NCBI RefSeq assembly: GCF_024722375.1
Contig: NZ_CP102734.1
Coordinates: 295,346 to 319,345, forward strand
Length of the DNA stretch: 24,000 bases
Direction of reading: 5' to 3'
Origin: Mycoplasma iguanae
GTDB taxonomy: Bacteria; Bacillota_I; Bacilli_A; Mycoplasmatales; Metamycoplasmataceae
In this document: positions 3,368 through 19,779 of the stretch, one piece after another
How positions within the stretch are numbered: the stretch's first letter is position 1
How the letters are laid out: every line of letters begins with the position of its first letter
Made by a program: the position numbers and the translations under genes
Notes under the pieces: model-generated
Seen by the model: the letters and a program-made list of their open reading frames with translations, nothing else
Database searches by the model: none
Told to the model about the DNA's origin: nothing

Positions 3368-4195
3368 ATGATTAAATTGGGAAGTCATGTTTCTTTTAAA
3401 AAACCTGGATATTTACATGCTGCAATTACTGAATCGATTGCTAATGGTGCCAACTGTGCCATGATTTACATGGGAGCTCCACAAAGCACAATGCGCGCAA
3501 ATGTGCAAAATTATCAATTATTTGAGTATTTAAGAGATTTTAAAGATATTATTAAACCCGAAGACATAATAGTTCATGCACCATATATTACAAATGCAGC
3601 AAGTGAAGAAAAATTTCAGTTTGCTAATAATTTTTTAATTCAAGAAATTGAAAGAATGAACTATATTGGAGCTAAATATTTAGTACTTCATCCGGGAGCT
3701 TATACTAAGTTTACTAAGCAAAGTGCTTTAAATCAACTGATTAAAAGTATTGATTATATTTTAGAAAATACTAAAGATGTAGAAATTATTTTAGAAACAA
3801 TGGCTGGAAAAGGCACAGAAATCGGTACCACTTATGAAGATTTAATTTATGTTTTGGATAATGTTAAATCCAACAGAAAAGGTATTTGTTTAGATACTTG
3901 TCACGTTTGAGATGCAGGTTATAATTTGCACAATTATGATCAATTTATAGAAGATTTAAAAGATAAAAGAGTGTTAGAGTATTTAAAAGTAATTCACTTA
4001 AATGATTCAAAAAATGCTCTTTTTAGTAAAAAAGATCGTCACGAAAATATTGGTAAAGGATATATTGGAGTTGATATTTTAAAAAGGATTGTACATGATC
4101 CTTTATTTGATAATATACCTATAATTTTGGAAACACCATGGGTAGATAACAAACCTATTTATAAAGAAGAAATTAAATTACTTTTAGATAAATAA
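3368..4195 (+). CDS. nfo: Deoxyribonuclease IV (endonuclease IV, AP endonuclease family 2)
   Basis: ATG 3368 follows AGAGGGA. Track ORFs 3368..3910 and 3926..4195 are in one frame, joined at TGA 3908. This gives [15 protein letters not shown], the Endo IV DTCH..AGY metal-site motif. YLVLHPGAY and [13 protein letters not shown] are also present. Product is 275 aa. Confidence 0.9.
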
Positions 4196-4227
4196 AAAAA
4201 GAATGAAAACGTTTTTTCATTCTTTTT

Positions 4228-4230
<3 letters not shown>
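4196..4230. terminator. Bidirectional rho-independent terminator between convergent nfo and metG
   Basis: The stem AAAAAGAATGAAAA (4196-4209) pairs with TTTTCATTCTTTTT (4214-4227) around a 4-nt loop. It has an A-run on the left and a T-run on the right, so it reads as hairpin plus U-tract on both strands. Confidence 0.75.
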
Positions 4231-6538
<2,308 letters not shown>

Positions 6539-6603
6539 AGTAAAGCCGCCTCTCAGTATAAATCATTTATATTTTAATATAAGGGTAATTTAATCAAATG
6601 ATT

Positions 6604-8488: not shown

Positions 8489-8560
8489 AATGAATATTTC
8501 TATCAAAGTAATATAATTTTAGTCAAATTTAAAAATCATTAAATTTGGATAGGTGGATTC

Positions 8561-10886
8561 ATGAAATTAAAAAATAAGATTTTACTTTCATTAACAGCAG
8601 TTGGAGTTTTATCATCTGCTGCTTTTACTAGTATTCTTGTAAATCATTTTAAAAACTATAACGGATCAAATGATGGATATTTGATTTATGATCCAAGTGC
8701 TATTACCAAAGAATTAAAAAATGAAGAATTAGAACCATTGCCAGCTCCGGCAGCTACTCCAGAAACTAATTCAGAAGTTAAACAGCAAAATCCTGTTATT
8801 TTACAACCTAAGCCACAACCTCAACCTGTAAGCCCAGAACCAGCCCCTGCTCCAAAACCTGCTCCTCAACCCAGACCAGTTTTTGTGCAACCTCAACAAC
8901 CAACAACTCCAGAGAGTGCTCCTATTCCAGAAAGACGAATCGAAAGTAAAAGACCGGTTATTTTAGGAACAATTAGACCTTCTCAAGATTCTGATCTAGA
9001 TAGAGAATTAAGCAGAAAAATTCTATTAGATAGTGATTTAGGAGAAATTGAAGAAGTAAATTCACTAGAATTTGAAGCTGGAGCAGATGAAAAAATTCCA
9101 GCAAATGAGAGAATTTTTGGTGGTAAGGGAACCCACAGAGAAGCTCAAGGAACATTTAAAGATAGAAATCCAGATGGAACTGAATTTTGAGCTGATATTA
9201 AGAAAAGCTAAATATTTAAACAATTCATACGGTAAAGGTGGTCAAAATTATCCAGAAAGTTTGACTGATATTTTTTACAGCAAAAAACCTTTTAAAAAAC
9301 TTGCACCTGGTACAAAAATGAAATCAAAAGATTTTAAAAATGTTGATGTCAATTCCGTTGTTTTTACAGGTGAAGATTTTTTAATTTTAGATGATGATGA
9401 TTTTAATCAATTTGTTGAAGAAATGAACTACCATATTAATTGACACAACAAATTTAAATTAAATAGTTCACCACAACAAGCTAGAATACCATTACAACCT
9501 TATACAAAGAGTCAGATAACAGAAGAAATTAAATCATATTTACGTAAAGGTTATTGACCCGCTGGAGTTAGCCCTATAGCCGATCCTTCAACAGCAAATG
9601 ATAATAATCCTCCTGCTGTTCCTGCTTATGTTTCTGTTTGAGGTAAAAGACCAGCTTTTGTTAACAACACAACATATGGAATGATTTCAAAACAACTAGA
9701 TAAATATATTCCAAGTAGTAACATTGCAAGAACAAAAACTCAAATTGAAAATTTAGATTACAATGATCGTTCTGGTTCAACCAAATATGCTTGAACTAAA
9801 ACAACTAAACCAGTTGACGGTTTTGATAATGTTGAATTAAATACTTATTCACCTTCTAAAGAAATCGAAAATGTTAAAGATAGCTTTGAAAGATATATTA
9901 TTGATATCAAAAATATCAGTAATGGAGTTGATGTTAATGCTGTAATTGATAAAGTTAAAAAAGAAGTTAAACATGGTAACATCGGTTTTGGAATTGCTCT
10001 AAGAGATATAAATGACAGAAACATGGATAAGGCTAAAGAAATTATTAAAAGCCTGCCAAGAGATGTTAAATATCTGATAACTTTCTATAATTCAAATAAA
10101 CCAGACGCATTAGAAGCGCTAATGGATAATCCTAATTTTTCAGTAGATAATCGTTTATTTGAACTAGAAATTGTTATTAATCCACCACTTAATAGAGAAG
10201 GTCAAGAATTACTTGGTGATCCTAGTCTATTAAGAGAAATTGATCCTCGTTTATTTTTAAGAGTTGCACCTGCAGCTTTTAACTATAAATCTCAAGCTGT
10301 TTTTGAACGTTGAAAAATTAGAGATGTTGCTGCTTCTAAATCAATGAATGAAGCAACATTGGAAAATATTATTAAATATGTTTATGTGAAAGAAAAAGAT
10401 AGAAGAGAATTTCAAGGACCACATGGAGAAGGTGGTTATATCCATGAATTAGATTTAAGTGCAACAAGTTTTAAAACTATTAATAATATTGAAATTCCCA
10501 AAGTTCAAACTGATAGACAATTAAATTTTTCTCTTGTGATTTTCCCTGAAGTTCAAAACAAAAAGTTAGAATTAGATTTATCTAATTTAAGAATTGATAA
10601 TACTGATAAAATTATTCAAAATGGACAAACTAGATATGGAAAAGATGCTACTAAGCAGCCTGAAACTTTAGAAGTTCAAAATATTTCATCTCGAGGAGTA
10701 GCTGCTGACATAGCTACTTTAGGTAATATCATGGGTTATTCATGATCTATTAATGAATTAGATCTGTCTAAAACTAATATTACTATAGAACAAGCTAAAA
10801 GTATTTCTGGTGGAGCTAGAGGTTCTAAATTTACTGTTAAAGTTAAAACAGGTGAAACATTTGAATGAACTCCTCCTCCTAGATAG
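8561..10886 (+). pseudogene. Membrane-anchored proline-rich surface protein (hypothetical), split by a single-base frameshift near 9203-9206
   Basis: ATG 8561 follows AGGTGGA. The N-terminal anchor or signal is MKLKNKILLSLTAVGVLSSAAFTSILV, with no lipobox Cys, followed by a Pro/Gln-rich linker (PKPQPQPVSPEPAPAPKPAPQPRPVFVQPQQP). This frame ends ..PDGTEFWADIKKS-TAA (9209-9211). The +1 frame continues from 9204 as KAKYLNNSYGKGGQNYPESL... and is open through track ORFs 9072..9443, 10023..10313 and 10344..10745 (TGA=Trp) to TAG 10884-10886. Removing one A from GAAAAG (A4 at 9203-9206) gives one 774-codon ORF. Confidence 0.7.
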
Positions 10887-17674: not shown

Positions 17675-17711
17675 GAGAAGATGATAAAGAAACTTTCTTT
17701 AGGAGAAATAC

Positions 17712-19779
17712 ATGAAAGCTAAATACCAAAGTGAATTAGAAGCAATGAATGACTTTTATGAAGAATTAATTGCTCTAAGAGAGAGAGAGAGAGAGAGAGA
17801 CCTTAGAAATCGACTTTTCCTGTAATACTGATGGAAGAATTAAAGGAACTTTATTTGAATTTAAATTAAGATTTGAAAATATTAATTCACATTTAAAACA
17901 AATTAAAAGATATATCATTGCATTTAACGCAATGGGACAAAATCCACCACGTTATACTTATTTAGTAGATATCAATAATCGTAATTGTATAAAAATTGAT
18001 AATCTTAACTTTTCAATATTAAATGAATTTAATTGAAAAAGTCCTAAAGAATTTGTAATTTATGATGAATATATTGAAGGATGAATTGATGAATACAGCA
18101 TTGTAGGATGAAATAATACTTATTGTACCTATAAAAGTAATGCAACAAAAGAAGATGTTAAAAACGAATTAATTAATCCTAAAATATTAAATATTAAAAA
18201 ATTTGATTGAAATAAACAATTAGATTTTGAAAAAACTAATAGAACTGATAATAACTGATTAACTTTTAACATGAATTTATTAGGTAGTTCCTTGCTTAAA
18301 AAGCAATTAGGAGCTTTTTTTACTCCTGATAAATACGTGAAAATTTCAACTCAATTAGTTAGAGAAGCTATTGAAAACGTTCCTAAAGGGAATGATTATA
18401 TTATCCTGGATCGCTGCGCAGGTACAGGAAATTTACAAAAATTTTTAAGTGAAGATGAATTATCACACTGTGTTTTAAATACATATGATTACACAGAATG
18501 AACAACACTAAAAGGACTCTATGAAGGTAGAGTAAGGATGATAATTCCACCAACTAATAAATTACGTAATGAAAATGGTTTATTAGAAAACGGTAATGCA
18601 TTAAGTAAGAATTTTATTGACTATAGGCCTTTAGAAGATATTATTGCCAACAAAAAGATCACAATAATTATTTTAGAAAATCCACCATTTAGAAATATTA
18701 CTGATAATAAAATAAGTAAAGATGAAAATGATATTTACATTAAGACTATAATGGGAACACAAAAAGCAGGATTTAAAACAGATTTATCAAACCTTTTTAT
18801 TTGAAGTGCTGTAAATAAATATTTAAGACAAAAAGGTGATGCAATGGTTTTGTATAGTCCTATTAAATATTGAAAATCTTATAATGTAGTAGATACTTTA
18901 AAATTCGAAAAAGGTTATATAGTTAATAAAAAAGACTTTAATGCAAGTTCTGAAAGTGCTGTAAGTTTAATACATTGAAGCTGAAACTATTTAAAAAATA
19001 ATTATTCTAAATTAAATTTTGAAATCATTGATCATAATATTGATAAAAAAGATAAAAATTATGAAATAAAAAAAGTTTTTAATACACCAGCTCATCTATT
19101 TAATAAAATTAAACAAAGTGAAAAAGAAAAAATAGCTATATTGAATATTAGCGGTTTTTCTTTAGATTACCAATCAAGTTCAATTTATATTAATGATAAA
19201 GATGTAAAAGGGAATGGCTCACCTACAATTTTATATAAAAACAATTTTATTGAATATTTACCACTTTTTGCTGCTAAAAAATACAAAAGTGTTATTACAA
19301 ATTGGTGAGAAAATGAAACGATTTTTGCTACAGGTGATGGTGGTTTTGACTATAAAAATGATAAAGAGTTTTTAAAAAATTGTTTGATATGGACTTGCCT
19401 TACTGATTTAAATAAAGCTCGTGGTGATGAATTAAATCCCAATCCATTCGGATTAATGCAAGATACCATTTCAAACAAAATTTTGTATGACTTTGATTGA
19501 AATGATGATGATAAAAAAATTTTGGAATTATGAAAAATTGTTTTATCAGAAGCTAAAAAAACAAGTTTATACAAAGAAAACAAAATTTATAGTTTAAACG
19601 ATATAAATAATGAAATTAATATTAAAAAAGAAGACGGAAAAACTAAAACTGGCAAAGTAATAATGGTGCCCAAATATCATCAATTAGATTATCAAATATC
19701 CAATTTAAAAAATAATTTAAAAGAGTATTACAAATCAAAAATTGTCCCGAATTTATTTAAATATGAACTATTAAAATAA
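17712..19779 (+). CDS. Gamma-class N6-adenine DNA methyltransferase with a possible N-terminal PD-(D/E)xK nuclease module (Type IIG-like), currently out of frame at a (GA)11 tract (phase OFF)
   Basis: ATG 17712 follows AGGAG (17701-17705). In the present sequence the ATG frame stops at TAA 17823-17825. The +1 frame is open from the tract to TAA 19777-19779; I hand-translated all of it, with 15 in-frame TGA codons read as Trp, and track ORFs 18271..18501 and 18538..18804 are pieces of it. MTase motifs appear in the order X (LGAFFTPDKYV), I (IILDRCAGTGNLQKFL), IV (IIILENPPF). The N-terminus carries ..IDFSCNTDGRIKGTLFEFKL (D...ExK). The first in-frame ATG after the tract is at 17932. Confidence 0.75.
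17779..17800 (+). repeat. Uninterrupted (GA)11 simple sequence repeat inside the methyltransferase 5' coding region
   Basis: Read directly: cta-aGAGAGAGAGAGAGAGAGAGAGA-cc. It would encode an (Arg-Glu)n stretch in the ON frame. Confidence 0.97.

Follow-up and report, generated by a model that had tools for sequence, protein, structure and literature searches.

Does the long GA repeat near the 5' end of a Mycoplasma iguanae gene act as a genetic switch, and what kind of enzyme would it control? The locus was analysed in a stretch of 24,000 nucleotides (contig NZ_CP102734.1, positions 295,346 to 319,345), referred to below as the window. All positions of the gene are numbered within the window and lie on its + strand. 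A preliminary description, made from the letters alone, had placed an uninterrupted (GA)11 tract at the junction between a start codon and the out-of-frame body of a DNA methyltransferase gene. We propose, as the probable interpretation, that the tract is a slipped-strand ON/OFF switch of a compact (~689 amino acids), stand-alone enzyme of Type IIG-like character, in which a PD-(D/E)xK-like domain, a gamma-class methyltransferase core, and a recognition region are joined in a single chain.

The DNA of the window contains 26% guanine and cytosine, and TGA is read as tryptophan (translation table 4). The long frames in the window are open only with this reading. Open reading frame (ORF) calling with table 11 split the gene into fragments, and table 11 was rejected in favour of table 4 because the body frame contains 13 in-frame TGA codons. 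A Shine-Dalgarno-like AGGAG (17701–17705) is located 6 nucleotides 5' of the start codon ATG 17712. According to the family alignment and to the models, in which residues 8–19 are helical, the start codon and the 22 codons that precede the tract (17712–17778) specify the first helix (alpha-1) of the N-terminal domain, where the family-invariant Glu8 is located. The body frame is shut directly 5' of the tract by a TAA (17776–17778). The perfect (GA)11 repeat follows at 17779–17800, and the program Tandem Repeats Finder (TRF) describes it as (AG)11.5 starting from 17778 with 100% matches.

The consequences of changing the tract length were modelled. At the present 11 units, the frame of ATG 17712 reads MKAKYQSELEAMNDFYEELIALRERERERDLRNRLFL and terminates at TAA 17823–17825, yielding a peptide of 37 amino acids; the same stop codon is used at 8 and 14 units. 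The frame used at 7, 10 or 13 units ends at TAG 17804–17806, which at 10 units gives 30 amino acids. The ATG frame joins the body frame only at 6, 9, 12 or 15 units, resulting in proteins of 685, 687, 689, and 691 amino acids, respectively, which end at TAA 19777–19779. The non-productive lengths that were modelled give 28–39 amino acids only, and both wrong frames terminate 2–8 codons past the tract. Since the repeat unit is not a multiple of three nucleotides, a change in its copy number toggles between the full-length and the truncated product. Re-reading of the sequence bore out every coordinate of the preliminary description (the AGGAG, ATG 17712, the tract, the two TAA codons, and the TAG), together with its claim that the gene is OFF at 11 units and one unit from ON. 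Its central interpretation, in which productive lengths make up a third of all tract lengths and nothing but the tract joins the body to the start, is supported by the family N-terminus, the orthologs, and the fold and motifs described below.

Apart from the (GA)11 tract, the 24 kb window contains no dinucleotide repeat of at least 5 units. Sequences simulated with a first-order Markov model (300 simulations) had a longest GA or AG run of 3.3 units on average, and of 6 units at most. The tract is far beyond chance. Its length is also above the minimum of 5 dinucleotide units that was used in a survey of phase-variable genes controlled by simple sequence repeats (SSR; PMC5909438). The body frame consists of 666 sense codons, 13 of which are TGA, and is open only under table 4; the chance that it would stay open at this base composition is ~4e-22. 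A promoter scan of the AT-rich DNA gave fewer matches than were obtained in shuffled sequences.

The reconstructed 12-unit product was used as the query in a search for homologs, and its residue numbers are used below for M. iguanae. The catalytic core of a gamma-class N6-adenine methyltransferase is located at 18316–18690, as indicated by invariant columns of the alignment and by the matches of a homolog model. It contains the motif FFTP (18316–18327, residues 203–206), motif I LDRCAGTGN (18406–18432, residues 233–241), and motif IV ENPPF (18676–18690, residues 323–327, with NPPF at 324–327). FFTP, D-x-CAGTGN, and ENPPF are invariant or nearly so in 58 family members, and they occur in the order characteristic of the gamma class. 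The structure model is that of the full-length homolog P0004 (46% identical), calculated with an alignment of 58 sequences, and not that of the M. iguanae protein itself. The AlphaFold model of P0004 has a predicted local distance difference test score (pLDDT) of 90.7 and a predicted template modelling score (pTM) of 0.84. A Foldseek comparison of the model to the PDB identified the Type IIG enzyme BpuSI as the best match (E = 1e-7), followed by BsaXI (Type IIB), LlaGI (Type ISP), M.TaqI, MmeI (Type IIL), M.BseCI, and BrxX; the match probability was 0.8–1.0 for these seven proteins. All of these matches are gamma-class N6-adenine DNA methyltransferases, and most of them are nuclease-methylase fusions. 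The whole-chain template modelling scores (TM-scores) of 0.2–0.3 and identities of 9–14% correspond to likeness of fold and architecture, not to close kinship.

The C-terminal half of the protein (18691–19779) is presumed to contain the target-recognition domain (TRD) and a terminal helix. Its frame is open, it is modelled confidently, and the structural alignment to Type IIG enzymes and M.TaqI runs past the catalytic core. The single-chain order of putative nuclease (R), gamma-class methylase (gamma-M), and TRD is most like that of solved Type IIG enzymes, with BpuSI as the top match, followed by BsaXI, LlaGI, and MmeI, a similarity of architecture only. The assignment as a methyltransferase is supported at the level of fold and motifs. 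Two more familiar classes were considered and rejected. A Type III Mod subunit does not agree with the position of motif I before motif IV, with NPPF in place of DPPY, with the lack of an N6_N4_Mtase Pfam match, or with the lack of an adjacent res gene. A Type I HsdM subunit was dismissed because neither the window nor the family loci contain hsdS or hsdR neighbours and the protein has no HsdM_N or N6_Mtase Pfam match.

The remainder of the N-terminal domain, 3' of the tract, is PD-(D/E)xK-like and extends over 17801–18129; its 3' boundary was placed only approximately, near residue 140, by visual inspection of the alignment. It includes Asp41 within NTDG (17824–17835), Glu50-x-Lys52 (17857–17865), and Gln64-xxx-Tyr68 (17899–17913). 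Residues 1–118 of the homolog model have a pLDDT of 95.9 and form a helix, three strands, a helix, and further strands (alpha-beta-beta-beta-alpha-beta). The residues invariant in the family are E8 in the first helix, D30 before the second strand, E39-x-K41 in the third strand, and Q53-xxx-Y57 in the next helix. They are kept in the M. iguanae gene, as E8, D41, E50, K52, Q64, and Y68, and in its two mycoplasma orthologs described below. We take this succession of helices and strands with E, D, ExK, and QxxxY to be that of PD-(D/E)xK nucleases of the RecB/Cas4 type. Pfam gave weak matches of the N-terminal domain to PDDEXK_9 and NucS_C, and a fold search with the isolated domain of about 118 residues gave no significant match to any nuclease. 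Judged from the conserved residues and the model, a nuclease and methyltransferase fused as in Type IIG enzymes is a more likely description of the protein than a methyltransferase that is plain or of Type III, and the N-terminal domain may cleave DNA. The DNA methyltransferase named in the preliminary description stands as to fold and motifs, whereas a plain methyltransferase has become the less likely form of it.

The gene is flanked upstream in the window by rsmH, an ftsA-like gene, ftsZ, and apt, and downstream by a convergent K+ channel gene and the genes for RNase J and thioredoxin. No recurrent partner gene was found across 47 loci of the family. Because of these housekeeping flanks and the lack of a recurring partner, the enzyme would have to work alone, as MmeI-type enzymes do (PMC3874165), and, as far as gene neighbourhoods indicate, without the gene of a separate specificity or restriction subunit. 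Unlike the M. iguanae copy, which is located among housekeeping genes, the ortholog in Candidatus Mycoplasma pogonae is followed (locus L001, 6082–9896) by two GmrSD-type (Type IV restriction) genes with a phage-integrase-family gene between them, a setting that resembles a defence island.

The strongest rival explanation retains the switch and takes away the cleavage. According to it, the gene encodes a solitary methyltransferase without an endonuclease, the N-terminal domain serves for DNA binding or dimerisation, and the switch is purely epigenetic, of the phasevarion type, as the preliminary description had suggested. We assign to it a clear minority of our confidence. The failure of the isolated N-terminal domain to find a nuclease by structure, together with its weak Pfam matches, is what this explanation would lead one to expect, and so are the chain length below that of known Type IIG enzymes, the UniRef name, which is merely DNA methylase domain protein, and the location of the gene among housekeeping genes instead of in a defence island. 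However, the family, although very diverse, shows no variation at E, D, ExK, and QxxxY, which map onto a canonical nuclease topology, and the best structural matches of the whole protein are nuclease-methylase fusions. Moreover, the Ca. M. pogonae ortholog adjoins GmrSD restriction genes and an integrase, and the family has spread over phyla and onto a phage, as restriction-modification genes do.

Whether the tract is maintained as a switch can be judged from the orthologs of the gene. The two closest are P0003 from Ca. M. pogonae (L001) and P0002 from the Logan assembly of SRR19044774 (locus L002). In both, the DNA contains AGGAG and ATG, next the codons of the conserved N-terminus, and after these a perfect repeat at the position of the same loop. 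The tract is (GA)11 in M. iguanae, where lengths of 6, 9, 12, and 15 units are ON and give products of 685–691 amino acids. It is (AG)12 in Ca. M. pogonae, with ON lengths of 8, 11, and 14 units and products of 706–710 amino acids, and (GA)9 in SRR19044774, with ON lengths of 5, 8, and 11 units and products of 703–707 amino acids. All three genes are OFF, each of them is one unit from ON, and their bodies are otherwise intact. The three proteins form one clade in a neighbour-joining tree, share 50–54% identity, and are encoded in differing genomic neighbourhoods. Tract lengths of 11, 12, and 9 units alongside intact gene bodies represent variation between related genomes, between species only. 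A pattern search for more tract-bearing orthologs in metagenomes of the Joint Genome Institute (JGI) gave 0 matches.

A dead or dying pseudogene, in which a single slippage event inactivated the gene and the tract is a mutational accident, could account for the OFF state of the only assembly, for the OFF state of both orthologs, and for that of three AT-tract relatives in Rickettsiales; mycoplasmas commonly show eroded restriction-modification genes (PMC9465063). We nevertheless consider it improbable. The 666-codon body frame has stayed fully open in DNA of such low guanine and cytosine content and has kept every invariant catalytic residue. The perfect tract occupies the same site in three genes that have diverged to 50–54% identity and lie in different contexts. 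For perfect same-site tracts and intact bodies to occur together in diverged and relocated genes, purifying selection must have acted over a long time on body and tract alike. The joint preservation of a perfect repeat and a constrained, intact body through deep divergence is what a selected contingency locus predicts, and not what would be expected of a one-off inactivating slip, as far as can be read from these three genes. Under random phase, all three genes would be OFF in about 30% of cases.

The position of the true start codon determines whether the tract is translated. In the public record, the gene is represented by NV226_01530, a 615-residue 'hypothetical protein' encoded at 17932–19779 from the internal ATG 17932–17934, and it is not flagged as a frame-shifted gene for 689 amino acids. 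The 20 residues encoded 5' of the tract (MKAKYQSELEAMNDFYEEL) align with the family consensus MxxxYxSEIEGMxDFYxEL, and the RERERERE encoded by the tract is an insertion relative to all other family members, located in the loop between the first helix and the first strand. The AGGAG-to-ATG arrangement is common to all three tract-bearing orthologs. Because the residues preceding the tract match the conserved N-terminus of the family, ATG 17712 is, by this alignment, the real start, and the 615-residue call is an artefact, ATG 17932 probably being no real start. It follows from the same match that the tract lies inside ancestral coding sequence, not in a leader. The preliminary description had allowed for its own refutation by translation starting only at 17932, with the tract in an untranslated leader; this option is removed by the conserved N-terminus 5' of the tract and by the lack of a Shine-Dalgarno-like site at 17932.

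In another variant, the OFF state would still be translated from ATG 17932, and the resulting 615-residue protein would keep the methylase and lose D, ExK, and QxxxY, so that the tract would toggle the nuclease-like domain only, or would lie in a leader. The gene caller did select this codon, the shortening would spare FFTP, motif I, motif IV, and the C-terminal half, and the OFF state of a mycoplasma AG-tract gene can leak upon expression in E. coli (preprint, bioRxiv 10.64898/2026.04.01.715767). However, no Shine-Dalgarno-like sequence is present 5' of 17932, and the methionine is not conserved even in the two nearest orthologs, P0002 and P0003, which were likewise shortened N-terminally by gene callers, with internal starts at other positions. 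Furthermore, a protein beginning at residue 75 would have its N-terminal domain cut in the middle of the sheet, and the family N-terminus is conserved upstream of the tract. We regard this variant as very improbable. Least probable is that the assembled tract length reflects an error of sequencing or assembly, or else a minority variant, and that most cells have the gene in frame: repeats can be mis-sized in assemblies, and the GA tracts of M. agalactiae were checked by Sanger sequencing and fragment length (PMC9465063), but two independent ortholog assemblies (one an NCBI metagenome-assembled genome (MAG) or draft, one from Logan) are also out of frame, a 2-nucleotide error in a dinucleotide tract is uncommon for a short-read or HiFi consensus, and even a true error would leave the geometry of the switch unchanged.

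Several results weigh against a phase-variable Type IIG-like enzyme. Scans of the 689-residue protein against Pfam, NCBIfam, and PADLOC gave no match, and neither did a sequence search of the PDB with the 689-residue protein (phmmer) and then with the profile of the 58-member family. Pfam scans of the individual members gave scattered noise; 2 of the 58 touched N6_Mtase, with E = 0.0024. As a control, a small NPPF methyltransferase encoded elsewhere in the window matched 15 Pfam methyltransferase models, and therefore these models work on the proteins of this genome. The control is a 233-residue MTS-domain protein (5768–6589, - strand), apparently a tRNA or rRNA adenine methylase, and is unrelated to the switch gene. 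A length of 689 amino acids is clearly below that of characterised Type IIG enzymes, the matched chains of which have 751–1232 residues. The OFF state of three of the three tract-bearing orthologs has an expectation of ~0.3 under random phase and fits decay too. No second M. iguanae assembly was found, and the exact product was not in the contig index and had a single 100% match, which means that no variation in tract length was seen within the species or within a population. In addition, some GA tracts of M. agalactiae did not vary actively in laboratory conditions (PMC9465063).

Based on the geometry of the tract, the family alignment, and the homolog model, a mechanism of the slipped-strand switch can be proposed. 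A lineage-specific (GA)n tract would have been inserted 22 codons into the gene, in the loop that follows the first helix. Slipped-strand mispairing during replication would add or remove GA units at a rate sufficient to be useful. Each unit would move the frame by 2 nucleotides, and only n = 6, 9, 12, 15, and so on would yield the full protein, so that translation would toggle between a peptide of 28–39 amino acids and the complete enzyme. The sequenced genome, with n = 11, is OFF, and the gene would be turned ON by the gain of a single unit (to 12) or by the loss of two (to 9). Because the tract lies 5' of every catalytic motif except Glu8, the methylase and the putative nuclease would be switched together. 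In the ON frame, the tract would encode (Arg-Glu)n in a surface loop. The length of this loop varies among family members, which would explain why different ON lengths could be tolerated. The outcome would be a mixed cell population with and without this methylation and restriction specificity, with a possible effect on regulation or gene expression. Programmed ribosomal frameshifting or transcriptional slippage is not favoured as the primary mechanism, since the wrong frames stop 2–8 codons past the tract and the tract lengths of the orthologs vary as in slippage at the DNA level. A preprint reports low-level leakage in E. coli from the OFF frames of an AG-tract mod gene of a mycoplasma (bioRxiv 10.64898/2026.04.01.715767). 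By analogy, the OFF state of the M. iguanae gene may not be absolute and may permit a low-level leak.

The proposed switch can be compared to repeat-controlled methyltransferases of other bacteria. Mycoplasma Type III mod genes are known to carry (GA)n tracts of 5–25 units (PMC5909438), and AG tracts also occur in hsdS genes (PMC7383803). Clones of M. mycoides with AG12 (OFF) and AG10 (ON) differ in M.MmyCI protein and activity (PMC3498834), and in M. agalactiae the GA length correlates with the methylated motifs (PMC9465063). The M. iguanae gene resembles the Type III mod genes (M.MmyCI of M. mycoides subsp. capri and those of M. bovis, M. hyopneumoniae, and M. agalactiae; PMC3498834, PMC5909438, PMC9465063) in its AG/GA unit, in the similar tract length, and in genus-level biology. 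To judge from the sequences, the two also share a tract in the 5' part of the coding region, close stops in both wrong frames, many sequenced alleles out of frame, and an N6-methyladenine-type enzyme. However, the M. iguanae gene belongs to the gamma class, with motif I (233–241) before NPPF (324–327), whereas Mod belongs to the beta class with DPPY first, and the M. iguanae tract is at codon 23 inside the nuclease-like domain, not 5' of a Mod recognition domain.

Mycoplasma CpG methyltransferases are another case of control by poly(G) and poly(GA) tracts (PMC9465063). In M. pulmonis, M. crocodyli, and M. agalactiae, solitary genes for CpG (C5) methyltransferases have an intragenic GA or G tract just 5' of the catalytic domain (PMC9465063), as in M. 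iguanae. Their products methylate C5 of cytosine and have another fold class, whereas the M. iguanae enzyme has N6-adenine-type motifs (NPPF). Phase variation is also known for a Type IIG enzyme, Cj0031 of C. jejuni, which has effects on methylation, expression, and phage restriction (PMC4889913). As is proposed for the M. iguanae protein, Cj0031 of strain NCTC11168 is a single stand-alone chain of nuclease and gamma-methylase with an intragenic ON/OFF repeat, and it would be the nearest parallel in function, provided that the M. iguanae N-terminal domain is an active nuclease. In contrast to the 689-residue M. iguanae protein, which has its GA tract at nucleotide 68 and no sequence-model match, Cj0031 has 1243 amino acids, a poly-G tract at nucleotide 2573 in mid-gene, and recognisable Type IIG homology (PMC4889913).

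The structurally characterised enzymes BpuSI, MmeI, and M.TaqI (PDB 3s1s, 5hr4, 2adm; PMC3185434, PMC3874165) share with the M. iguanae protein its proposed domain order R, gamma-M, TRD and the catalytic motif NPPF/NPPY, and MmeI, like the M. iguanae enzyme, has no companion methylase. They differ from it in that the similarity amounts to TM-scores of 0.2–0.3 and identities of 9–14%, the N-terminal domain of the M. iguanae type (about 118 amino acids) does not match their nuclease domains significantly, and these enzymes are without known SSR control. The M. iguanae gene would switch like the known GA-tract systems, yet it belongs to none of their families, and its likeness to Type IIG enzymes is in architecture only. 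A methyltransferase switched by a GA tract is in itself expected mycoplasma biology; in this case, it belongs to an enzyme family without annotation. The literature searched contains no mention of this gene, and M. iguanae appears there only in unrelated work.

The search with the 12-unit product showed that the family comprises at least 986 proteins, most of which have 650–700 amino acids and 100% query coverage. Its members occur in Bacillota, Mollicutes, Actinomycetota, Bacteroidota, Patescibacteria, Rickettsiales, and one phage; the phage-borne member is BFVD entry A0A8S5SDC8, with 739 amino acids. A scan for repeats covered 80 genomic loci of the family. Three Rickettsiales MAGs contain (AT)6 (L020, 5034–5045), (AT)6 (L021, 2820–2831), and (AT)9 (L022, 5034–5051). 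The tract closely follows NPPF, at about codon 349, where the model has a loop of low confidence. Each of the three genes is OFF, and 4, 7, 10 or 13 units restore products of 672–691 amino acids; this would be a second position, of independent origin, for a dinucleotide switch within the family. All six members with a dinucleotide tract (the window, L001, L002, L020, L021, and L022) are OFF in the consensus assembly, each one unit from ON. The probability of this is ~0.09 under random phase, which is not significant. The ON state may be costly.

A different arrangement was found in oral and animal Streptococcus. Twelve loci (L024, L025, L033, L034, L036, L037, L039, L067, L070, L074, L075, and L080) contain 5–22 copies of TCACAGC preceding a family gene, the product of which has ~768 amino acids. 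At the 8 loci with a readable upstream start, a short upstream ORF (MNA-[ITAHSSQL]n-...) contains the repeat from its codon 4 onwards, and one repeat count in three causes the upstream ORF to overlap the start of the main gene by 23 nucleotides. At locus L037, for example, the upstream ORF is at 3781–3996, the repeat at 3791–3860, and the main gene at 3974–6280. The states are mixed between species: arrays of 10 and 22 copies read through, and those of 5, 8, and 9 copies stop early. This streptococcal repeat is not mentioned in the literature searched.

Two further repeats were observed upstream of family genes. In an Acholeplasmatales MAG (L047), a G10 run at ~3893–3902 lies between TTGTGC and a TATAAT-like hexamer, which resemble -35 and -10 promoter elements, ~108 nucleotides 5' of the family gene; by its position, it could be a promoter-spacer repeat. 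In a Mycoplasmataceae MAG (L014), (AT)8 is located at ~3905–3920, ~96 nucleotides 5' of the family gene. We propose tentatively, with our doubts slightly outweighing our confidence, that the proteins found by the search constitute a widespread, unannotated family of compact single-chain restriction-modification enzymes (about 650–770 amino acids, with a RecB-like nuclease head) which came under the control of hypermutable repeats at least 3 separate times by three designs: (GA)n at codon 23 in the clade of three mycoplasma genes, (AT)n in Rickettsiales, and the 7-nucleotide repeat in streptococci. The analogy between the loci suggests that the family has repeatedly been drawn under hypermutable control, which would indirectly strengthen the reading of the M. 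iguanae tract as a switch.

The window contains one other possible frame-shifted locus, at 8543–10886, where two long table-4 ORFs (8543–9211 and 9069–10886) overlap in different frames. The first encodes a signal peptide and a lipoprotein-like, proline-rich sequence, and the second a product of 599 amino acids without a Pfam match. An imperfect tandem duplication of 29 nucleotides is located at 8988–9047, just 5' of the overlap. The locus could be a frame-shifted surface-protein gene.

M. iguanae is a reptile pathogen with almost no literature, and the gene described here is a candidate contingency locus. For annotation, the finding means that the 615-residue "hypothetical protein" is a mis-called, frame-shifted gene for 689 amino acids. 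The family to which it belongs is large and confidently foldable, yet it is without a Pfam, NCBIfam or PADLOC model. This gene, which is of neither Type I nor Type III, is not covered where surveys of phase-variable methylases take the REBASE lists of those two types as their starting point (PMC5909438, PMC7383803). If the recurrent and distinct repeat switches on one family are real, they would represent a clean case of convergent evolution of hypermutable restriction-modification control. In M. iguanae, the locus could produce subpopulations with different genome methylation and a different barrier to foreign DNA, which would be relevant to transformation attempts, to the interpretation of methylomes, and possibly to host adaptation.

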